A stretch of 64,000 nucleotides of DNA from a virus (Duplodnaviria > Heunggongvirae > Uroviricota > Caudoviricetes), in IMG/VR virus record IMGVR_UViG_3300011008_000007; one strand, given 5' to 3'. Positions 24,901 through 55,003 of the stretch are shown piece by piece. Within the stretch, counting starts at the first letter, position 1, and the number at the start of each line of letters is the position of its first letter. The translations under genes were made by a program, and so were the position numbers. The notes beneath the pieces were generated by a model that saw nothing but the letters and a program-made list of their open reading frames with translations, did no database searches and was not told the origin of the DNA.

Positions 24901-26738
24901 AAGTCAAATGCTTCGGATAAATCAGTATATTTTGAAATATCAAACTGACTATTTTTAAAAATGGATATAATATTATTTTTAATATAGTCTTTGGCTGCGT
25001 TTGCATCTTCAAATTTTAAATTTGAATAATCGAGATTGTTTATAGCTTTTTGTACGATACCTTGAAACTCATCCGACAATGCAACATAAGAATCCTCTGT
25101 ATTCAACCACGCAAACAAGGTTTGAGTTAAAGAGCCCCAGTTTTGTTTGATTTCTCCCTTTTTGGTTGTTATTTGTTTTTCAATATCATTAACTTCTTCG
25201 TTAAAAACGTTTTCTATTTGCTGAAATCCTGCTCTCAATACTCTTGTTTGTTCGTCAGAAATTCCTCTTTCATCTCCGCCAATAAGAAATCTAAAACCTC
25301 CGCCAAATGAATATGATTCGCTTTCGTCTTGATACTCTATCCCTGCCGATTGAAGTAAATTTCCAATATATTCCTTGTAAGCCTTCACATATGCTTTCGC
25401 ATTATCGCGATTTTGACTATCGCTCAAATTATTATCAAACTTAAATCCCAAATCTTCGGCTGAATAATCTAAGTAATAAGAATCATATACTGTTTTACCA
25501 AATGCGGTTCCAGCTTTGGGCTTGGCTTGCAATTCATCAATAATTTGCTTTTGAATATCAATTTCTTTTCCGTTTTTGTCCGTGAAAGTAAGCCCGTTAG
25601 AAACAACTGTATCTACCATTAATTCATAAGTAGATTTGTTATTGATAAGTTCTTGCAACTCTTCTTGATATTTTTTGTCCTTTTCGAGCGCATCATTATA
25701 TACATCGTCTATGTTTTCGGCAATTTTTTGATTTGCAAGCTGTTGTTCTACCTCTAATAAATTCCTTAAAGAACTGGTAATGTCATTAACGTTTCCGTCT
25801 AATTTTACAATAGCGTTGCCGTTTTCATCATAAATAACTGGTAAATTAGAAAAATTATCCGCAAGTTCTTTGCTTATATCTAAAAACTCACTATACTCAT
25901 CTGCATTTAAACTTTTGTTTTTTCCTGTAAACGTATCAATGCCTTGGGATAACTCTGCAAATCGCTTACTTGAATTACTAATAACATCTTGCTGGGATTG
26001 TAATGCATCAGATACTTCTTGAATTTTCGACTTAGCCTCTTCTGCGGCTTCGGCAAGTTTTTCTGTTCTGTTAAGAACATTATCAAGAAATGTTGTAATA
26101 CCAGTCATAAGAAGTTGCACAATTAAACCAATTCCCATGCCGATTGCAGTATTTAAGGCAGTTGTGGCAACCTGTAATCCGATTGAGGCAACCTTCGAGG
26201 AAATAAGTGTGCCTATATAACCCCTCATTGAAGCATTGCCAGAATCAACATTCGACAAATATTTTCCAAGTATTCCGTTGGACTTGCCTGCGGCTTCTGC
26301 AAATTGTTCTTGGTTGAGAGATGTTGATTCTAAATCATTGTTATATGTGTTAATAAGAGAACGCACAGAACTAAAAGATTTATTTTGTGCAGCGGTTTGT
26401 ACGGTCATTGCGTCGCTTTTGACTACATAACCATTTACTGCTGCTTCCATTTCTTCAACATCCCTTGAAACCGCGTTTAAACTTAAAGCATATTCTTGCG
26501 CTTCTGCCGATGCTTCACGCATTGACATTTCAAAAGCCTCATTTGCTGGAACGCCTTGGTTAATCAATGATAAATAATTCTGTATGGAAGACATATCGGT
26601 GGTTAGGTCTTCAAAACCAGAAAACGTAATTCCTTGGCTCTCTTGGAAAATTGAGGTAATCTGACTTTTTAATGTTGAAAAAATAGACGAAATTTTTAAT
26701 TTGCTTTGTTCTGCTTCGTCTTCTATTGTTTTAAATAT
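18909..26738 (-). CDS. Tape measure protein, exon 2 (2609 aa)
   Basis: Long helical ORF. The ORF-track TTG start overlaps the intron-terminal G at 26739; joins in frame to exon 1. Confidence 0.85.
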   Translation of the reverse strand: MFKTIEDEAEQSKLKISSIFSTLKSQITSIFQESQGITFSGFEDLTTDMSSIQNYLSLINQGVPANEAFEMSMREASAEAQEYALSLNAVSRDVEEMEAAVNGYVVKSDAMTVQTAAQNKSFSSVRSLINTYNNDLESTSLNQEQFAEAAGKSNGILGKYLSNVDSGNASMRGYIGTLISSKVASIGLQVATTALNTAIGMGIGLIVQLLMTGITTFLDNVLNRTEKLAEAAEEAKSKIQEVSDALQSQQDVISNSSKRFAELSQGIDTFTGKNKSLNADEYSEFLDISKELADNFSNLPVIYDENGNAIVKLDGNVNDITSSLRNLLEVEQQLANQKIAENIDDVYNDALEKDKKYQEELQELINNKSTYELMVDTVVSNGLTFTDKNGKEIDIQKQIIDELQAKPKAGTAFGKTVYDSYYLDYSAEDLGFKFDNNLSDSQNRDNAKAYVKAYKEYIGNLLQSAGIEYQDESESYSFGGGFRFLIGGDERGISDEQTRVLRAGFQQIENVFNEEVNDIEKQITTKKGEIKQNWGSLTQTLFAWLNTEDSYVALSDEFQGIVQKAINNLDYSNLKFEDANAAKDYIKNNIISIFKNSQFDISKYTDLSEAFDLFKNGEIDLQKYREYHKALTSELNSIDGITKETKDAIMSGFRDIGAEGENLDTVYNRINSLSNGMISVSDAKKKLSTWTYDDISTILKIDDDTITSWDELKTKIEEFKATDTDSFEFDLSGVKDNLEEINTIISEGFGDTGLSDDSISKVKELFGDLDEYDQFELFEHTAQGIRLNTTEFKKLQSEYNNSKKSEITTQLTKLQNKYNSLTDEIKSCGNNTAKLTQLESERSAIAQKIQDTEQLASQYEALTSKYQAWQDALNNGEAGDTYDDIRDKLSDIKDLYDKGLVGTEEFRTYVDLLSGKDLSTASVDEVTSAYENLGNTIKGTSYSILDFLDEDEKGVKNFVEALTELEDSEGNKYATKDKNGNYSFDISDKDDLADQLGTTTEFVEDMLSKLTEYGFEVDIDVAEMSEDDLKSSFESAKSKLEKSGVLKLDYELEDVNSDNIADKILEVQKTMEKNNWDDGNGNFKVGIDDEDANQVQIVLANLIRKKQELQQPAIMDIDVKSDFDDPESDGAKAVAKLQELQGYINDYEVAVKTGSETSDSVQKIKECSEEIKKLPEETKAKLNLDTKEFQNTIDNITGDKKSGKEGIKIKSGVTVSEDDLTQLQGSIEAITPKVMVDVGYKDENGEAKKEEPQQQTVLVSYNPFFGLITNFEKDVKDGKHDVEAKFKYKTDTSGMKNVTVTTTEITLDKKGKVKDTKKTTTTSNFGVSAADGLYSGKYSSKALVGEKGFEILARNGHYYTIGEKSAEMIDVKSGDIIFDHNQSKQLLSTGQITTGKKRGQSFVWGNAFSGSKGSGSFNTSNNSSSSSSSSSSSSSSSSSSSSSSSSSSEDKLLTKFQNWFDKLFDWIEIKLERQTDRIDRYITKAENATNNNNYSSATKNYRKAISATAVQTGNEKTAYSKYTKQANKTLNKAVSLGIINKKQAKSIKKKVANGTMDISSYGDRMQEVISSYQDWYDKAQDASDALTELHGNIRTYINDLKDLHDAQRDAKIDKVSTYQSIGTSGYTSTSGSFYGAANSQLSYSNSAIDKENSAYSTATSQAQSDRDSLGRTAKSNINKQLKKKNLKKIKNKKKRKKYKKALQNARNAIKKKKPISNSDLNTIRSVNQSVYTRLYAYNLSLENVETARLEQATEYAANSAEKLENIATKYGNKDTATSNTQELNRQKADNAKNAKEANQYLEKVASGYDTILSDDQKEINEFKKDKNKNRNKIIANNMANKAHRGKNYGNLSKSQKKTVDKYIDKAQKAAKANTIIPANVIAKLAEYYSKGYITYKFYKACVDYNNALEHLREAEAQKAIDEQTAKAEKAAIGAEMVSNVEKEYENKRNENKAKTTKIETAQKLATTRGLTLTATDYQTLIAQSVIDQQLYEQEAQAVYDQIQKNLASGYWTTDSQEYKDAMEAYWGYQNSAEECRISQEEWNNAIAMLPIDTLEKGLELLDAFKNRLEALVDLQQKLGQDEGSAVYREELAVAQRKAIAARREAEEAHNNMVLAQGSSDGVYGGKTIAQWRALEEGYLADEYKYLAEVKDISNSLVEYYLNPFEKAIVGIERFQKIVDGLGDLISDDMLFDKDGQLTEYGIARAATEVQNYENARNSISEYEKELEKLNELRNKNLLNNAEFNEQHQVLLEQLHSGAITYDEYLDGYRALGELYNTSILTAEEYAEKVADLQDKILSGAKDMKSAVDEIVSMYKEMAQTELDNLFELIDARNDALQAKKDYYEYDKSIREKNKNIQELQSELAALEGINSAAAKAKKAQLLSDLAEAQEELDETVQDHLLEISEDSLSDLKDTLQEAFDDNWKEISQDIDSLMEVFSSGQSLVADSVNGVNETLIQLLTHLGIGTNTASSLVLGHNASGTRSVPRNMYSWINERGQELITSNKGTITPLAKGDGVIPATLTGRLIALAQGDMSEIIKAPETNIPKLNVDNLGTVTQYYDNLINIEGSADAATVEDLKKLGKDLLEQSYRNTSKKMYQGIRKAGGKRQI

Positions 26739-26765
26739 CAAACTATAAAACTATCTAAAAAACTA

Positions 26766-26794
26766 TTGACAAATATAATAAACAATGATATAAT
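26766..26794 (+). promoter_or_regulatory. sigma70/sigmaA promoter of the intron cargo gene
   Basis: TTGACA-17 nt-TATAAT, with TG near the -10 box. Confidence 0.85.
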
Positions 26795-26821
26795 ATAATA
26801 AATCAAAAAGGAGTTGTGTTT

Positions 26822-27280
26822 ATGGGATTACATTACTATTATTGTCCAAATTGCGCTAAAGTAGATATTAGACCGTGGAAACAATGTGCAAACTGTGGAA
26901 CAAATATACCACCTATAAAGTCAAAAATGGAAATGTATTTTTATATGAATAAAGCACAGGAGATATATGGTGATAGCAATCATTGGTATGATTGCCTATT
27001 GTCAGAAGTAAAAAAGCATCCTTGTTTTAATGAAGATGCACCTTATTCACAAGTTGCAAAAGAAATAACCAGTAATTACAAAAAGCATTACGAAAAAATT
27101 GCCGAAAGGGCAATAAATAAGGTTAATCAAGCAAATGCACCAAAATGTCCAACCTGCAAATCGACAAATATAAGAAAACTATCTGCCGTAAATCGCGCGG
27201 CACACGGTTATGCCTTTGGATTGTTTAGTAAAACTGCAAGGTCGCAATTCTGTTGTAATAACTGTGGATATAAGTGGTAA
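26822..27280 (+). CDS. Zinc-ribbon protein (four CxxC pairs), antisense inside the intron
   Basis: CPNC..CANC at the N-terminus; CPTC...CNNC at the C-terminus. RBS AAGGAG 8 nt before ATG 26822 (track start 26816). Confidence 0.85.
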   Translation: MGLHYYYCPNCAKVDIRPWKQCANCGTNIPPIKSKMEMYFYMNKAQEIYGDSNHWYDCLLSEVKKHPCFNEDAPYSQVAKEITSNYKKHYEKIAERAINKVNQANAPKCPTCKSTNIRKLSAVNRAAHGYAFGLFSKTARSQFCCNNCGYKW

Positions 27281-27288
27281 TATGTTTT

Positions 27289-27322
27289 AGGTAAATGTTT
27301 CGACATTTACCTTTATTTTTTT
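27289..27322 (+). terminator. Intrinsic terminator of the cargo gene
   Basis: AGGTAAATGT-TTCG-ACATTTACCT followed by a T-rich run on the plus strand only. Confidence 0.85.
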
Positions 27323-27647
27323 GTCAATAGTTTTAAATATTATTATATAAAATAGTTCCGAGCGCATATTATCGTGACATAGTTGCATATAATCACGACC
27401 ACCTGTTGTCGCTACTGTGAGGGCTTGTCTATGTAAGACCTATCCCTGCGAACCAACGGAGCGCAACATTTTTACGACCCTAAATTGTCGCCAAAGTAGG
27501 GGAGTAGTTACGTTGTACCGTTTTCCTCGCATATTGAGGCTTCGTTTAAACGAATGTATCTCATTCGCCGCAATATCTAAACTGTCTATATCTAAACAGA
27601 ACTGTTATTGCTATCGGCATATTTATGAGGACAAACATTTTAGTCCT

Positions 27648-29912
27648 ACCGATGTTTTTAAATGAAAGAGCACCCATTGCAACGCTTATCAATGTTGGCA
27701 ATGTTCCAAAAGTATTGTTTACTCCTTCAAATATTTGCAACAATCCGCTTCCCATATCAATGAGAGTCTTTACACCCTCTGAATCAACAAGAGAAGTTGA
27801 ATAAGATTCCCAAGACGCTTGTAATTGGTTTAAGTGTCCTTGAATACTATTCATGTATTTTGCTTGTTCATTTGCAGCGGTTCCAGTTGCATCCGTTGCG
27901 GCTTGTGTTGCTTTTTCAACTTGGTCAAAATTGTTAATTACAGCCGCAACAGCATTAGCATTTCGCTTTCCGCTTATACTTTCAAGTAAATCGGCTTGTG
28001 CGGTGTCGCTCAAATCATCATATACTTCGGAAATTTCTTTTAAAATTTGATATGTACTTTTGAAATCTCCGCTATCTTCAAAAATATTTACTTTTCCGTT
28101 AGTAAGGTTAAGAATATGGGTTTGCATTTGAGAAACCGACTCAACGTTTTCGTCAACTTCTTCTCCTAATTCTTCTAACTCGCCCTTCATGCCGCGCAAA
28201 CGCAAACTTGTGGTGTTAAGCACGGTTCCAGCTTTCTCGGCATTTTGAATAACCTCAATCATACCAGTTGCCAAACCCGTAGATTCCTGAATGGAGTTAT
28301 TGGCTTCTGATAAAGCAGAAGCAGAACGTTCCATTGCGGCACCTACATCTGCGGCACTCAAAGCAAATTCATTACCTAATTTGTCATAAATATCACTTAA
28401 ATAAGAAACAGCTTCCGTTGTATTACCTTGATAAACCTCATCTAATTGTTCTTGGAAGCCTTTATATGCGGTAATTAAGTTTTTGGTAGCTGTATCTGTA
28501 TCAAGGTCTGTAACGTGTTGATATTGGGTTGTGATTTCTGCCAAGCCCTCAGCGGTGTCGGTATCAAATCCAAGTTTTACCCAGCCTGTAGTTAAATCTA
28601 CAATATCTTTGAGTGTGGCTCCGTATTCTTTTGCAGAATCCTTCATTTGATTGAAGAGGTCTGTATAGCCACTTTTTGTTAAATTTGTTACACGATATAA
28701 GCCGGTCATTGCCGTATCAATATTTACAACATTTTGATACATTTCTTTCATTGCCGCAACTGCACGATATATCAATTGCGCCGAAGAAATATATTTAGAT
28801 ACTGTTGTAAATGATTGTTTGAATACTGTACCTAAACTTTGACCAGTCTTACCCAACGAAGTCGCTTGGGCTTTAATCGAATTAAATTCGTTTTCAACTT
28901 GTTTAAACTGACCGACAGTTGCGTTTCCAGAGGAATTTAGCTGAGTTAGCTTATCTCTTAACGACTGTATTGCCGAACCAAAATCTTTACTTGCTTTAGA
29001 GTTTTTAGACATCCAAGTGGAAATCTGATTATCTAAATTCGTTATTTGAAGCGAACTAACAAAAGTTTTAGATTCAGCCGATATAGTAGATAAATTACTT
29101 TTGACTCTTGAAAGAGTTGAATCCCACTTATCATATGCGGCAACTAATTCATCTCCGCTTGCCGAACTAATAGTAGCCTGCAAACTGTTTAGGGTGTTTA
29201 AGTCCTGTTGAACAACTGCTAATTTGCTATGACCAGTTGTGCCAAGTCTTTCATATTGAGCTGTAACCTGAGCAATTGAGGCGGTCATTTTTTCTGGAGC
29301 GCCCTGTAAGTTCATTGCTTGGCTCAACGAAGTCGAATATCTTTTTGCCGCCGCTTCACCTGCATCAAATGTTTGAGTCAAAGTATTACCTTGGCTAATC
29401 AACTTTCCTGTTTCCGTTTCAATTTCTCTAAAAGTAGTTACAATATTACCAGACTTATCTAACCCTTGAATATCAAAACGAATAGTATTTCCTTTTTCTC
29501 TGGAGGTAATACGTTTTATAGCAATATCTAAGTTTTCTAAATCTTTTGTTACATTGCTTATCGAGCTTTTATCAACTCCAATTTTTGATAGGCTCGTTCT
29601 TAATTCATCTATAGTATTTGCGGTAATTTTTACTTGTCCTTTTATTCCTGAGATACCCGATTGAAAACCTTTTGCAAAACTACTTGCCGCACTCGACCCC
29701 GCAGATTGCATATCTCCCGACATTTTAACGGGATTGATATTTATATCGAATTTATGCTTGCTCAGTTCAGACTGTATTTCGTTAATTAAAGCCGCCGTTT
29801 CTGCTTTGAAATTTGAAATTTTGTATTGTTTATCTTGTATTTCTTGTACTTGCTGCAAAAATTTCGCTGTATTTAATTCAGCTTGAAACAGCGCACTAAA
29901 ATTGTCTGCCAT
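27648..29912 (-). CDS. Tape measure protein, exon 1 (755 aa; TP901-type core)
   Basis: Core motifs VVNIDTAMTGLYRV...AEKAGTVLNTTSLRLRG. The last 28 codons of the track ORF are intron read-through. Confidence 0.85.
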
Positions 29913-45692: not shown

Positions 45693-45769
45693 TGGAGCTG
45701 GTGGACGGATTTGAACCCGCGACCTCCGACTTATGAGGACGGCGAGCTGACCATCTGCTCTATCCCGCA
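45693..45769 (-). pseudogene. Chimeric / degenerate tRNA, anticodon CAT
   Basis: Met-like D arm and anticodon arm, but the acceptor stem pairs only 2/7 and the T stem 3/5; ends in CCA. Confidence 0.7.
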
Positions 45770-48576: not shown

Positions 48577-48653
48577 TGGTGCCGCCTCGTGGAATCGAAC
48601 CACGTCAAGCCAAGGGCTTCAACCTTGCGCTCTACCTATTGAGCTAAAGCGGC
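48577..48653 (-). tRNA. tRNA-Phe (GAA)
   Basis: Full cloverleaf; CAAGG-TTGAAGC-CCTTG; encoded CCA. Confidence 0.9.
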
Positions 48654-48756
48654 ATATTGACAGCCATTCTCCTGCTGCCGCGAAGCTCCCTTAGTACGCA
48701 TACCGTAGGGGTGGGTTTTCATCTTCTATGTCCCGCAGGTACATACCCATTACCGC

Positions 48757-48832
48757 TGGCTCCCACAGGTGGGCTCGAACCACCGACAACCCGATTAACA
48801 GTCGGGTGCTCTACCAACTGAGCTATACGGGA
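48757..48832 (-). tRNA. tRNA-Asn (GTT)
   Basis: Full cloverleaf; CCCGA-CTGTTAA-TCGGG; encoded CCA. Confidence 0.95.
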
Positions 48833-48841
48833 ATATCTAAA

Positions 48842-48918
48842 TGGCGACTACGGTGGGAATTGAACCCACGACCTCCGCCGTGACAGGGCGGCGTTCTAAC
48901 CATCTGAACTACGCAGCC
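48842..48918 (-). tRNA. tRNA-Asp (GTC)
   Basis: Full cloverleaf; CCGCC-CTGTCAC-GGCGG; encoded CCA. Confidence 0.95.
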
Positions 48919-49116
48919 TTGTATTAAGGATTCTCTGACGCAGCTATTGCCGCGCCAGAGTCACAAAGAAAAGAGAAAGAGAGAGATAATGAAAGAAATG
49001 AGAACAGGGAATTTTATTATATTCCCTTCATATAACATATTTTACTCTTTTAGAACATTCGTTTTATCCTCTCTATAATAGGGGGAAATTAAGGCATATT
49101 TTTTTTTCTCTCAAAA

Positions 49117-50058
49117 TTAAACTGTGGACATATCATTATTTTGACGTTGTTTTTGTTTATTTTCCTTGTAGTATTTACGCCTATATTCCTCATAACAACC
49201 ACTACATCTTGTGGTTCTTTTGTTATTTCCGCTAACTGCAAACTCTTTTCCGCAATCAACACAAGTTATTAATTTTGTTTCTTTTTTTGTGTAGTGGTCG
49301 CAATCTTTACAATATTTTCTGTTCTTGTATTTATTGTTGCGAATCAAAACTCCGCACTCGGCGCATCTAATCAGCTTGACACCGCAATAAAGCATATATT
49401 CATATCCAAGTTCTCTAAAATCTGAAACTTTCAATACGGGTTCGCTCTTATTATCTGCAAAAGTAACCCGAACATTGAGGTTATCTATTCTTTTTGCTTT
49501 TTCTAAGAAACCAAGCCGACGTAGCATTCCGAGATACTTGAACCTTTCATCTACCGCACAATTGATTCTCGCCAACTTGTATATTTCTCTTGCTTCTTGG
49601 TTTACCCAACTGTTATTCTTTGCATTGCGCTCATTATTGAGCTTGGCAATACACAAAAGAGTAAATGCAAGTCGTTCCAAAATCTTATTATTCAAACTGT
49701 TTATCTTATTTATCTCATTTTGTGTAATCCATATTCCGTCAATTTCGTGTAGTGCGGTTTTGCCGGCATTTTTCGCAATTTTTTCAATGCTTTCATCCCA
49801 AGCAGCTTTATTTCCCTCATATCTTGGATAGTATTGAGAAATGAACTCAGTAAGTAATTCTGCTATCTTCTTTTTGCGATAACCAAAATACTGATAGTAA
49901 TAGCGTGCCAAAATTGTTAAAGTATAATACGGATTGTCATTAAGGGTTCGTTGTTGCAGACATTCTTCTGCATATTCTTTTTCATTAAGTATAATCATCA
50001 CTATCACCAATCGCTTTCTTGCACATCTTGAAGTTTTCGCCGCAATATTCAAAATCAC
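49117..50058 (-). CDS. Zn-finger protein coupled to the RNA polymerase gene
   Basis: Overlaps the RNAP 3' end; four C-terminal CxxC pairs. Real start probably near 49998 (MIILNEKEY). Confidence 0.65.
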   Translation of the reverse strand: MILNIAAKTSRCARKRLVIVMIILNEKEYAEECLQQRTLNDNPYYTLTILARYYYQYFGYRKKKIAELLTEFISQYYPRYEGNKAAWDESIEKIAKNAGKTALHEIDGIWITQNEINKINSLNNKILERLAFTLLCIAKLNNERNAKNNSWVNQEAREIYKLARINCAVDERFKYLGMLRRLGFLEKAKRIDNLNVRVTFADNKSEPVLKVSDFRELGYEYMLYCGVKLIRCAECGVLIRNNKYKNRKYCKDCDHYTKKETKLITCVDCGKEFAVSGNNKRTTRCSGCYEEYRRKYYKENKQKQRQNNDMSTV

Positions 50059-51118
50059 CGTCTTTTTCTACTTTCACAGGATAGTGAATAATTCCATTGT
50101 TTCTCTTATGTAAATTATCAATTATTTTTTCGCCACACACATCCCAAACAAATTGTTTTGATTTCTCGGACTTATAACACATATCAATCAAGATGTTGCA
50201 AAGCTCATCTTCATTTGGACAAATTTCCTCGCAATTTCTTCTGAACCAATTAATTAAAACTTGTTTTTGCTGATTGGAATCAAAGGAGTCTATTCTTTCA
50301 TTTCTACTCTTTGCTTGATAAGCGTCCAATTTATTTTTGTATTCTTGATATATTTGTAAGAGCAAATTATATGTTTTGTTGTTATACCCCCCATTTGATT
50401 TCAAGATGGTATAATCGAATTTGGGTTGAGTGTATTTTTTTGATAAATAACCATCGAATATATTTTCAAAAATCCAGCAAATTCTATTGACAACGCAAGC
50501 GCTATTGCCAACAGGAATAAATCTTTCATAATAATCCAAAAAGACTTCCATATCCTTTGTTTTTGGTTCATACTCATATAAATCTTGAATTGAAGAAATG
50601 CCATATTCCTCAAACATTATGTTGGCGGAATTATTACTATTGGTTAAATAAGTATTATTCTTCTTTCTAAGGTTTGGATAAACATAGGTCATAAAATAAG
50701 GTTTATTGGCGGCAGAAATACTTCTATTAAATGATTTGAGTTCTATTTCTTCTTTACTGTCATTTTCATTTGCTATGTTATCTCGAATGCTGAACCAATT
50801 TTCCGGCATAGGCTTGGCAATAATGCCCTTCGCGCGGTCTATCGTGTTCTGCTGGAACAATTGTCCACACATTATTCTATACTGTAAAGTTTTATATTCT
50901 TCTGAATCTTTATCGAAATTTTCTATAACCTCAAACATACTTGTGACGTGATTAGTTACCGTTCCAATGTCATCATTGAACGCTAACTTGTTTGCGGCAA
51001 TTATATCTTCCTCGGTTGGAATTATCTTGTCCGCTCTTTTTTGCATACACATAATAGTAGGGGAGTTCTGTGTATTTTTTGAAATTATTGGATTATCTGT
51101 ACACATATTTGTGTCGCC
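49985..51118 (-). CDS. YonO-like single-subunit RNA polymerase, exon 3 (377 aa)
   Basis: Begins GDTNMCTDN, completing the DKD|GD motif after splicing. Confidence 0.85.
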   Translation of the reverse strand, partial: GDTNMCTDNPIISKNTQNSPTIMCMQKRADKIIPTEEDIIAANKLAFNDDIGTVTNHVTSMFEVIENFDKDSEEYKTLQYRIMCGQLFQQNTIDRAKGIIAKPMPENWFSIRDNIANENDSKEEIELKSFNRSISAANKPYFMTYVYPNLRKKNNTYLTNSNNSANIMFEEYGISSIQDLYEYEPKTKDMEVFLDYYERFIPVGNSACVVNRICWIFENIFDGYLSKKYTQPKFDYTILKSNGGYNNKTYNLLLQIYQEYKNKLDAYQAKSRNERIDSFDSNQQKQVLINWFRRNCEEICPNEDELCNILIDMCYKSEKSKQFVWDVCGEKIIDNLHKRNNGIIHYPVKVEKDGDFEYCGENFKMCKKAIGDSDDYT

Positions 51119-52151
51119 CATTTATACCCTCGGTTTCCCGATATTTAATGAGGGATTAGACTATATCTTCAAATATTATTCTATTACCAAATAATATTTG
51201 CTTGGCACTTCCACTTATGGAATTTCACCATAAATGTACTCTACTCGCTTCTTCACATAAAGTTTTCTTTTATGTTATGCTTTCGATAGTCGTTGCACCC
51301 ATATTAGTGGGCACAGAATTAGCTTGTGTGTGTATATTTTTAATGAATTGGAGCAAACTCTCCAAAATATTGTTTTTCAGCTAAAAGCCTTGAATTTATT
51401 GCATCTGTCTTGTTATTAAAACGTCCTAAGTAAATACGTTTATTATTGCAATTAATATATGAAATCCATTTATTTGATTTTTTATCAAAATGTACCCCAT
51501 TATAACCACTCATATTATTTGAGTAAAGCCCCTTGTTCTTTACATTATCTCTTTGAGTGCATTTCCTCATATTGCTTCTTCTGCAATCTTTTGGATTTCT
51601 ATTTATATGGTCAATAATAGTTCCTTCATTGACACCCATTATATATTGATGCAGGGCTACTCGCTTCTTAGTTGTGGTATTATATCCATAAATATATCCT
51701 TTTTCATTTTCGTACCAGCATATATCCTTAATTTTATCAACGTCATCCAAATCCACATAAAACTCACTTGAAGTATTATGTGTTAAAAAGATAGCAACGT
51801 TGTCTTTTATTGTATATTGGTTGTGGTAGTGTTCAAAAGGTATTGAATTTTTATGGGCAATTTTTAAATAACACGACTTACACATTTTTGCACCATTTTT
51901 CAATTTGTACATATCTTTATCTATAATCGTTCCGCAGTCACATCGGCATTTTAATCTTTTATGGTGTTTGCCAGACGAGTCGATGCGGTCAGACGCATTA
52001 TCAATAATTGTCCAATTCCCGAATCTATCTCCGATTTGTATTTTTTATCACCGCTTATTTATTTTACACACATTTAGCCGTTCTCTGTTAGCATATTTCT
52101 ATACACCCAACATTTGTTGGTTCACCAAGTTTTACAAGGACAGGTTTGTTC
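51119..52151 (-). mobile_element. Group I intron 2 (1033 nt) with HNH homing endonuclease
   Basis: P1 AAGGAU/GUCCUU with terminal U.G; R-like CAACGACUA and S-like AAGAUAUAGUCU; terminal G; in-frame junction. Confidence 0.9.
51340..51912 (-). CDS. HNH-AP2 homing endonuclease (frame open upstream to 52041)
   Basis: IDHINRNPKDCRRSNMR (HNH) and GVHFDKKSNKW...YLGRF (AP2); lies inside intron 2. Confidence 0.9.
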   Translation of the reverse strand: MYKLKNGAKMCKSCYLKIAHKNSIPFEHYHNQYTIKDNVAIFLTHNTSSEFYVDLDDVDKIKDICWYENEKGYIYGYNTTTKKRVALHQYIMGVNEGTIIDHINRNPKDCRRSNMRKCTQRDNVKNKGLYSNNMSGYNGVHFDKKSNKWISYINCNNKRIYLGRFNNKTDAINSRLLAEKQYFGEFAPIH

Positions 52152-52286
52152 ATCCTTGTCAGCCCCGTTCATTGCATCGCAGGCTGTGTCCCACGCATTA
52201 TAAACTAAAGCTGATTTTATATATTGATACCAATAATTTGTTTGTTCATTTGGTTGAAGTTTCATTTTACGAATATTGTTATGACA
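52152..52286 (-). CDS. YonO-like RNA polymerase, exon 2 (45 aa)
   Basis: CHNNIRKMKLQPNEQTNYWYQYIKSALVYNAWDTACDAMNGADKD; exactly 135 nt; missed by the ORF track. Confidence 0.9.
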
Positions 52287-52562
52287 CATTATCTTAAACA
52301 AATCACGCTACCGATTTGTTAGGGATTAACCCTCTCTTGCTTTCGCAAGAAGTTGAGACTATATCTTCATCCGTAAGGATGCCTACCGCTTCCACCATCA
52401 ATCGCTTATGGTGTACTCTACTCGCTTCCGAATTATATTCGTGCTTTCGATAGTCGTTGAACCTTACCCGTTAGGGTCTTGGCTGCTGATTATCCCGTAG
52501 GACTTCCCAGCAATTCAATAGGAGTTGCCCCATATATTCCTATATAGGCGACCTGTCATTCA
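52287..52562 (-). mobile_element. Group I intron 1 (276 nt, no ORF)
   Basis: P GAAUUGCUGGGA, Q AAUCAGCAG, R GUUCAACGACUA, S AAGAUAUAGUCU; exon ends in U, intron ends in G. Confidence 0.92.
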
Positions 52563-54068
52563 AGTCATTGGCGCGCGAAAACAAGTAATTTCGTCCGCTC
52601 CCTTATCAATCCAATATTTGTGATACACTTCACCACTTTTTAATAATCCAGTAACCTCTAAACCAAACATACTTTGACATAGGGCATAGGGGTCGCCCGA
52701 AATCATCGCAAAATTAGCATTAACCTTAATTGCCCCGCGTTTTGCCATTTCAATTCTCTTGGAAATCATATTCCAAATTTTGCGCCGCACATACGGGTCA
52801 TTAATCATTCGCTCATCTGCCATAAGTGCCCGAACACAAAAATCATAGTTGTCGTTAAGAACATTCTCGTCTGTTATTCCAAATCCAGCCATAAATACGA
52901 GGCTCCTACGATAATCCATTCCTAATACACCGGCAATTTCATCAATCGTAGGTTGACACAATTCTTGAAGCTCGCTATCCGTAAATTGATAACTTTGCAA
53001 AAACTGATAATTCGTATTCCTAACATTTTCAAGTTCGTCGGGAGTAATTTTAGGTGTTGAGAATTGATAGTGGTTTTCTTGGCAATTTGCGTAGTAGTCT
53101 TCCCAGCTATCATAACACTCCCACAACTTCAACATAGACTCCGTTAAAATTACATCTGCTTCACGAATATCTCTTTTGTCGCCCCACACATCCTCAATCT
53201 CGTATGTGCCGGCGATTTTCTCGGCAAACTCCACAAAGTCAAAAGTATAAACCATACCTTTAGTCCAAGCATACCGTGTATTCATTCCTGATAACGGTTC
53301 GTCTGAACCAGTAAGATATTGATTAACCTTGCGAGAATATGAGGGGAGCATTAAACCATATCCATCAGAATCATTGTGTTCTATCTCGAATCCATCCTCA
53401 TATGTAAGAATAGGTTCTCCGTCCGTTTCATCGTTTATAAGGATAACATTATCTTTGAAGTGGGTTATGCAGTCTTTTATAACTATAAACCCTCGTGGTT
53501 CAGGGATGGGGGTTGAACCAGAACAGATAAGGGCTTGATATGCCTCTAATTTTGCCGGCACCAAAGGAACGTTCTTGTTACGCCCGTTGTCGAGCCTCTT
53601 TTTCAGCTCAGGATAAAGTAGTTCATTTACATAAACAATTGTAGAGTTCTTTATTCCGCCGTTCGTTCCAAGGAAGCGCCTGTACTTTATTCCGTTTATT
53701 GAAAATCCGCAATTTGCTCGGTCATAGTCTTTATTGCTATCCATAATGACGCATACATAGTCTTTTTGAAATTGAAGCTCATAAAGTTTATTGTATAAGG
53801 CTTTAACTTCTGCTTTGGTTTCTCTTGATTTTGGTTTACGCTTTGTATATTTGATTTTCTTTTGTATGGATTTTATTTCCTCGTCTATGCCGCAAACTCC
53901 GTTAAGTTCATCTATGAACCTTAGCAGTTGACTATCGTTCAATGAAACAATGTTGTCGGGATAATCACTCATTGCAACATTAAGAGGAAGAGTTAAGTTC
54001 CACTTGGCTTTTTTAAGCTGCTTGCTATGGATTTTATAAATTAACTTCAAGCAACTTTTTTGTTCCAT
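52563..54068 (-). CDS. YonO-like single-subunit RNA polymerase, exon 1 (502 aa)
   Basis: Ends CFRAPMT and splices to CHNN; the spliced 924-aa product has the two-barrel polymerase DxDGD motif. Confidence 0.85.
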
Positions 54069-54204
54069 TTATATTACCTTCTTTCGCGCGCTCATAAATA
54101 CCTCTCACTTGCCCTCTGTTGTATTTTTATATGTAGGAATATCTCGATATGGACAACCAATAAAAAACATAAGAAGAGCCAAAAGAAAGAATAATAAGCA
54201 CGTC

Positions 54205-54588
54205 CTAAAGTTTTTGTGTTAGGTTTATTAAAGAAACGCAAAAACACTCATCCTCCGGCAAGTAAGTAACCGCAAGATTGTCGTGTTCGTATTTAAGTAG
54301 CTCTTTAATTTGATATATATAGTAACAGTAGTCAACTTCACCCTGGCGAATAGTGTTCAGAATGCTATTTATAAACTCGCAATATCTTGTCCATTGGGTT
54401 TCCTCTTGAAAAGAAACTTTAGTACCATTCACAAGGCAATAAGACTTAGGAAGCTCCATTCTTCTTTTGCCGCTTGGTGAAACCAAATACTTTAATACTT
54501 TAAATGCTTCCTGCCACTCGTCATCAGTTGTGCCACTTGGCAAACCTTTTGCGGCGGCGCCCATTTGTTGTAGTTCTTCTAATTTCAT
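54205..54588 (-). CDS. Hypothetical protein, first gene of the RNAP operon
   Basis: 127-aa ORF after the promoter and RBS AGAAGGA. Confidence 0.6.
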   Translation of the reverse strand: MKLEELQQMGAAAKGLPSGTTDDEWQEAFKVLKYLVSPSGKRRMELPKSYCLVNGTKVSFQEETQWTRYCEFINSILNTIRQGEVDYCYYIYQIKELLKYEHDNLAVTYLPEDECFCVSLINLTQKL

Positions 54589-54653
54589 ATCCTTCTCACA
54601 TCAACTAACATAAAATAAGAAACCAAAGAAGAAGCTCTTTGTTTTCTGATATT

Positions 54654-54682
54654 ATTATAGACGCGTTTTATAAACTTGTCAA
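54654..54682 (-). promoter_or_regulatory. sigma70 promoter driving the RNAP operon
   Basis: TTGACA-17 nt-TATAAT on the minus strand. Confidence 0.85.
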
Positions 54683-54728
54683 TAGTTTTTTAGGAAAGTT
54701 TATAAAAGTTTAACAAAAAAACTCCCTT

Positions 54729-55003
54729 ATATTAGCGTATATATAATATAAGCTAATATAAGTTATATATATTAATATAAGTATCTTATATAAGTAACTG
54801 ATATTAAAATAAGTACCTTATATTAGTAATTTATATTATATTAGTTTCTTATATAAGTTATATATATAATATAAGTAGTGTATATAAGTTAATTATATTA
54901 ATATAAGTTTCTTATATAAGTAACTGATATTAATATTAGTATTGTATATAAGTAACTTATATTAATATTAGTACCTTATATAAGGAAACTATTATTATAT
55001 AAG
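54729..55003. repeat. AT-rich array of 31-32-bp units (18 ATATWAG copies), iteron-like
   Basis: Copies at 54729, 54746, 54756, 54775, 54788, 54807 (variant AAATAAG), 54820, 54838, 54851, 54869, 54882, 54901, 54914, 54933, 54946, 54965, 54978, 54997. Confidence 0.85.

Follow-up and report, generated by a model that had tools for sequence, protein, structure and literature searches.

The stretch of DNA considered here (hereafter the window) comprises 64,000 nucleotides (nt) of the IMG/VR virus record IMGVR_UViG_3300011008_000007, assigned to the Caudoviricetes, and the question raised by its positions 49,117 to 54,068 is how a gene for a YonO-type RNA polymerase (RNAP) could give an active enzyme when its catalytic DxDGD motif is divided between separate open reading frames (ORFs). 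The answer that we favour, with a probability of roughly 0.88, is that the locus is one gene for a single-chain, two-barrel RNAP of the YonO type, carried by a provirus of ~103 kilobases (kb) from a gut or rumen phage and interrupted by two mobile group I introns. All parts of the locus lie on the minus strand. Exon 1 (52563..54068), identified as an ORF, consists of 502 codons (1506 nt) that encode the first barrel and the R498-x-P500 motif, and it ends with RAPMT. Intron 1 (52287..52562) follows after codon 502, between RAPMT and C (site A below); it is a group I intron of 276 nt, matched by Rfam family RF00028, and has no ORF. Exon 2 (52152..52286; CHNN...NGADKD) has 45 codons (135 nt) and spans the region from the RxP motif to the first two catalytic aspartates. 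Between its terminal DKD and the GD with which exon 3 starts (site B) lies intron 2 (51119..52151), a group I intron of 1033 nt with its core at ~52151-52080 and ~51316-51119. Within it is an ORF for a homing endonuclease of the HNH type (HNH_3 plus an AP2-like domain; 51340..52044), which has 234 open codons and its first ATG, GTG or TTG at 51912. Exon 3 (49985..51118; 1134 nt, that is 377 codons and a stop) contains the invariant residues G599, N603, R628, D641 and K644.

When the three exons are joined they make 2775 nt that read in frame through 924 amino acids (aa) to a stop codon, with DKDGD at residues 545-549. The sequences at the joints become CCAATGACT followed by TGTCAT for exons 1 and 2, and AAGGAT followed by GGCGAC for exons 2 and 3. 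The last base of exon 1 is the T at 52563, and the first codon of the intron is TGA, a stop in the unspliced frame. An earlier note on this DNA had given the three pieces with these coordinates and frames, joining into 924 aa with D-K-D directly ahead of G-D, and had stated that a U precedes each intron and a G ends it; both statements are borne out by the sequence, in which the terminal G residues are found at 52287 and 51119. Both introns also end in AUG (52287-52289 and 51119-51121, minus strand), in frame with the next exon, so that ORF finders list exon 3 as a seemingly complete ORF starting with M-G-D. This AUG terminus is common to most site-B introns of the relatives and may be a matter of chance.

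The positions of the junctions can be compared with relatives in which the gene is uninterrupted. The RNAP of Enterocloster phage PMBT24 is encoded by one continuous ORF of 831 aa without introns, and its residues 8-456, 458-501 and 502-822 align to exons 1, 2 and 3, respectively, with neither loss nor gain at the two joints. In IMG/VR, 45 related phage loci were found (designated by L-numbers where they have to be told apart), the closest of which show 72-74% identity to the spliced protein, and in ~33 of the 45 a single open frame is colinear with the spliced product (residues 1 to ~920 of 924). At the DNA level, intron-free alleles agree with the joined exons at 36 of 36 nt over the first junction (L009) and at 32 of 36 nt over the second (L005). 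Each exon is also recognized separately: exon 1 by the profiles phrog_25339 (3.9e-183) and phrog_8308 (1.1e-65), exon 2 by positions 512-557 of phrog_25339 and by residues 514-558 of CST179 of phage c-st, and exon 3 by phrog_35857 (3e-67) and by alignment to CST178 of c-st. Judged by these alignments, the agreement of the junctions with intronless relatives exceeds chance by far. A megablast search of positions 49000-55000 against phage and plasmid collections gave no near-identical record.

The same data bear on the possibility of a split polymerase that is put together, without any splicing, from separately translated pieces, like the beta and beta' proteins of jumbo phages. Split two-barrel RNAPs are indeed known in jumbo phages (PMC2919709), and the in-frame AUG at both intron ends, which lets exon 3 read M-G-D, would suit such an arrangement. 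However, the break would then part D-K-D from G-D inside one metal-binding loop and exon 2 would be a peptide of 46 aa, whereas most relatives encode one continuous chain and the intervening RNAs have group I structure. Separate translation of the pieces is therefore highly improbable.

The identification of the host gene as a YonO homologue, proposed in the earlier note, was examined by sequence comparison and by structure prediction. In tblastn searches exon 1 matched yonO of 24 Bacillus (SPbeta-group) phage records at ~1e-20 and c-st at 4e-137, while YonO of Goe12 matched the window at 1e-27. The MAFFT alignment with YonO is colinear and places DKDGD on the DNDGD of YonO; the triad of D545, D547 and D549 comes together only after splicing. 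Searching 1.8 billion representatives with a profile recovered 2,478 members of the family at E ≤ 0.001, and a 98-sequence family alignment has 19 invariant columns, all of which (19/19) are kept in the spliced protein of the window: K173, Y177, D235, G236, K270, G271, K314, Y354, Q355, R498, P500, D545, D547, D549, G599, N603, R628, D641 and K644. These include conserved Asp and Lys residues of the N-terminal, beta-like half (K173, D235, K270 and K314) and the two residues of RxP (R498 and P500), with the eight residues described as universal in PMC2919709 being assigned by pattern and not by superposition. No Pfam or NCBIfam model matched any exon, and the family profile had no match in the PDB, in which no YonO structure was found by sequence.

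The fold was predicted for the intronless relative L005, which is 72% identical and stands in for the window chain. Its AlphaFold model has a predicted local distance difference test score (pLDDT) of 93.5 and a predicted template modelling score (pTM) of 0.88; a run with 14 close sequences was poor in the catalytic region (pLDDT <50 at 450-578) and was discarded, the 98-sequence alignment being used instead. A Foldseek search with the L005 model returned first RDR2 (1e-18) and QDE-1 (~1e-14), with matches to these two spanning 1e-18 to 1e-12, next the single-subunit two-barrel RNAPs of phages P74 (gp62) and P32 (gp64) at ~1e-6 and that of crAss phi14:2 at 8e-3, and then beta' subunits. The matches to RDR2 and QDE-1 fit published work that places YonO-like proteins beside the RNA-dependent RNA polymerases of eukaryotes (PMC2919709; PMC5467207). 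YonO itself has been described as having RNAP activity, an Asp triad and a role in late-gene expression (PMC5467207). That is, in the homology and structure search that the earlier note had proposed, the spliced chain aligns with YonO through a colinear alignment, with the Asp triad on DNDGD and all invariant residues kept, and the model of the relative gives a two-barrel fold. Sequence and model together support a host protein that is a YonO-type two-barrel polymerase homologue, with a predicted polymerase activity.

Intron 1 matches RF00028 (Intron_gpI) over the full model (1-253) with 86.9 bits and an E-value of 9e-21, the gathering score being 50. Its P1 helix is formed by GACUUG and CAGGUC, in which the last U of the exon stands opposite G. 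Introns at the same codon (site A) occur in L025, L046 and L048, with 89-93 bits on RF00028. Intron 1 (52287-52562) and its site-A counterpart in L046 (L046:4507-4783) share 91% identity, compared with 70% for exon 1 and 83% for exon 2, as would be expected if the intron was transferred horizontally and the flanks underwent some co-conversion. This points to a recent horizontal transfer of intron 1.

Intron 2 gives a different picture in Rfam. Alone, it shows a partial match to RF00028, in its 3′ part only (51256-51137), with 23.1 bits and an E-value of 0.009. The match is partial because a ~770-nt insertion with the ORF splits the core. The extra ~770 nt (~52080-51316) house the HNH ORF and are placed in a peripheral loop, between the two strands that we take for P4. 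At both ends intron 2 aligns with ORF-less introns of 271-322 nt that occupy the same site between DxD and GD in L025, L027, L034, L046 and L048, and the ORF-less orthologue of L025 matches the whole RF00028 model with 41.3 bits (E 1e-8). The P1 helix of intron 2 is formed by ACAAGGAU and GUCCUUGU, with a terminal U.G pair at the splice site that is invariant in five site-B orthologues. Both introns carry the P7 strands AACGACUAUCG ... GAUAUAGUCU (conserved P7 core GACUA...UAGUC) and also have the neighbouring core in common. An RNAalifold consensus of the five ORF-less site-B introns, a small sample to which the window copy was aligned without being part of it, extends from P1 to P8 and contains 77 pairs, 32 of them with compensatory changes; intron 2, once its ORF is deleted, refolds into the same P1, P2, P3 and P8. 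In the Rfam alignment of both introns a long insertion follows the 5′ strand of P7, which presumably represents P7.1/P7.2 of subgroup IA, the usual phage type. The earlier claim that both interruptions are group I introns thus finds its support for intron 1 in the RF00028 score, and for intron 2 in the U.G pair of P1, the terminal G, the P7 core, the HNH ORF and the ORF-less orthologues.

Nothing specific speaks for an intein, a group II intron, an insertion sequence (IS) element or an assembly artefact in place of group I introns, the weak Rfam score of intron 2 being the one point that could be raised in their favour. Intron_gpI was the sole Rfam family matched and no transposase turned up, independent contigs have the same elements at these sites, and the insertions cannot be inteins because they carry stops in the exon frame. 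Any of these other kinds of insertion is barely conceivable here.

The HNH ORF (51912-51340) matches HNH_3 of Pfam with 30.8 bits (cut-off 24.8), AP2 with 21.5 bits, which is below the cut-off of 33.3, and phrog_99 at 2e-36. The 44 codons upstream of 51912 (51913-52044) are also open, and including them moves the match to phrog_374 from 2e-15 to 8e-28. No ATG, GTG or TTG occurs in the interval from the upstream stop (52047-52045) to 51912. These 44 codons match the profile and yet have no canonical start, so the HNH gene either uses a rare start codon or is decaying; a possible start is the ATA codon at 52041, which has GGTGA 6 nt ahead of it. The HNH protein of the window has no close relative within the introns of the 45 related loci, its sole match there being a free-standing copy in L044 with 38% identity.

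Some of these observations weigh against a functional, spliced polymerase gene. The score of intron 2 is below the Rfam gathering score of 50, as is that of its ORF-less orthologue in L025; the endonuclease, lacking a canonical start codon, may be in decay or expressed poorly; the source record is classed as a provirus, which may be inactive; and the role in late transcription considered below is argued from analogy and gene order. It could be, then, that the introns are real but that one or both no longer splice, the polymerase being a pseudogene in a decaying provirus, a reading with which the provirus class, the HNH ORF lacking a canonical start before its conserved N-terminus and the low score of intron 2 would all fit. 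On the other hand, neither stops nor frameshifts interrupt the three exons, which retain every invariant residue of the family; intron 1 matches its full model, and intron 2 has intact core helices that agree with a consensus showing covariation. Furthermore, the record is 100% complete according to CheckV, and many phage genomes that are otherwise intact have introns at the same sites. We consider decay of the gene to be improbable. An intein, a split polymerase made without splicing and a pseudogene were all rejected as explanations of the locus.

In the related loci, interruptions were found at three places only. Site A lies after residue 502, two residues past the invariant P500, site B after residue 547, and site C after residue 640/641, adjoining the invariant D641. 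L025 and L046 have introns at A, B and C, whereas the window has A and B and no C. Group I introns at site C occur in L009, L012, L016, L034 and L046 and are often ~1.03-1.09 kb long; those with an ORF encode GIY-YIG endonucleases. The presence or absence of introns differs among close relatives. Among the 150 best representatives of the family, 98 are full length and 21 are ORFs that stop at one of the three sites (12 at B, 8 at C and 1 at A). The intron habit is common in YonO-type genes of this family. In a literature search on YonO-type polymerases, including that of PMBT24, no paper was found that describes introns in genes of this type.

The closest cultured-phage relative, c-st (AP008983; 44% and 35% identity), shares the interruption at site B as well as the ORF downstream of the polymerase gene. 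Its CST179 ends with DMD-K-stop, and the frame resumes with GD 317 nt later (L002 5666-5982). Unlike the window, c-st has no intron at site A, and its site-B intron is without an endonuclease ORF. In the public record CST179 is described as an 'N-ter only' homologue of YonO, CST178 as hypothetical and CST177 as 'C-ter only', with no intron mentioned; CST179 has likewise been cited as YonO-like with no mention of an intron (Iyer et al. 2021, PMC7824862). From the alignments, CST179 and CST178 are exons of one YonO-type gene. Gene callers fragment this polymerase and lose its active site. This effect of ORF-based annotation, asserted in the earlier note, is seen in the separate listing of the c-st exons and in the 12 site-B representatives above, which stop at DxD.

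On the reading as one gene with two group I introns, the primary transcript would splice itself: guanosine would attack just 3′ of the U that pairs with G in P1, and the exons would be ligated after the terminal G of the intron, giving a messenger RNA for the 924-aa enzyme. Translation of the unspliced RNA would stop at the first intron codon and yield a 502-aa product without the catalytic barrel. The phage's sole YonO-type polymerase gene would thus be able to give an active enzyme only after two splicing events. The introns would spread by homing, and we propose that they persist because the codons they target are invariant and cannot be altered by the phage. Such introns have precedents: it is well known that essential genes of phages can be interrupted by group I introns at conserved codons, and for one such intron, in an RNAP gene, experiments have been published. 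Classical examples are those of td, nrdB and nrdD of T4, of the SPO1-type DNA polymerase, and of bnrdE and bnrdF of SPbeta. These introns are small, lie at highly conserved codons of essential genes, have an HNH or GIY-YIG ORF in peripheral loops or none, and are patchily distributed among relatives. The present case differs from them in the host gene and in that up to three introns (A, B and C) occur in one polymerase gene in some relatives.

The case studied experimentally is gp210 of PhiPA3, a virion RNAP subunit gene in which an HNH-bearing group I intron, adjoining conserved Asp codons, acts in phage competition (Birkholz et al. 2024, PMC11620839). As in the window, the host gene is a phage RNAP gene, and intron-plus and intron-minus alleles exist among relatives. 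However, the gene of PhiPA3 encodes a beta-like subunit of a multisubunit RNAP and not a YonO-type single chain with a beta'-type DxDGD site, and its cleavage and competition were shown experimentally whereas the system of the window is known from sequence alone. A mobile intron has also been reported in gp273/274 of 201phi2-1 (PMC2919709). In the family described here, natural alleles with and without introns are available for the study of homing and of competition between phages at a polymerase active site.

Directly 3′ of the polymerase gene is an ORF (49117..49998, minus strand; phrog_30716) that starts at the ATG at 49998, overlaps the polymerase stop by 14 nt and encodes 293 aa with two CxxC...CxxC zinc ribbons, a probable polymerase-associated protein. 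A zinc-ribbon ORF is found at this place in 47 of the 47 related loci searched, including c-st (CST177) and PMBT24. SPbeta YonO (Forrest et al. 2017, PMC5467207) is, like the enzyme predicted here, a two-barrel RNAP with a single catalytic chain, but its identity to the window protein is ~28% and confined to the N-terminal two thirds; yonO of Goe12 is one continuous coding sequence of 839 codons, in contrast to the gene split by two introns. Moreover, the zinc ribbon of YonO is fused at the C-terminus, whereas here the catalytic chain is single after splicing and a similar, YonO-like ribbon is found in the separate, overlapping ORF. An hhalign comparison of the downstream protein with YonO gave a match that is weak (E 4e-4, probability 36%) and confined to the last ribbon and the C-terminal tail of YonO, so the label 'YonO C-ter' in the c-st record is weakly founded.

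A complex was predicted for residues 365-925 of the L005 polymerase with the downstream protein of L005. Its interaction prediction score from aligned errors (ipSAE) reached 0.72, whereas the best of three controls scored 0.15; of solved complexes, 58 of 80 attained this mark, and of mismatched pairs 2 of 110, counts that apply only approximately here because the alignments were our own. Contacts agreed to at least 82% between runs and the partner had a pLDDT of at least 83, the predicted interface being formed by polymerase residues 705-745 and partner residues 136-174. The prediction supports binding of the 293-aa protein to the polymerase, with which the enzyme probably works together, and makes it a candidate second subunit of YonO-type enzymes in this clade. 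A conserved zinc-ribbon partner of this kind would bear on promoter recognition by YonO-type enzymes. Neither the separate zinc-ribbon ORF nor the lack of a canonical start ahead of the conserved N-terminus of the HNH ORF had been covered by the earlier note.

A more far-reaching proposal would combine these elements: the polymerase would consist of two proteins, the catalytic chain and the zinc-ribbon protein, and the three sites at invariant residues would mark the endonuclease introns as weapons that cut intron-free alleles of co-infecting competitors, as with PhiPA3 gp210, while splicing would gate the late programme. Taken as a whole this proposal is tentative, and we think it rather doubtful that all of its parts hold.

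The source record has 103,196 bases and contains a single copy of the polymerase gene. After this gene the same strand carries three transfer RNA (tRNA) genes and the genes for a ClpP-like protease, the large terminase and the portal, with the tape-measure gene further on. The polymerase gene heads the morphogenesis block, in which it resembles yonO at the head of the structural block, ahead of the SPbeta late operon (PMC5467207). By analogy with YonO, the enzyme probably transcribes the morphogenesis genes downstream. An Rfam search of positions 25500-29000, which cover a putative group I intron in the tape-measure gene, gave no match at E ≤ 0.1. The three tRNA genes (48580-48918, minus strand) are directly downstream of the polymerase module, and a fourth tRNA, a weak match on the same strand, is located at 45702-45765 before the terminase gene.

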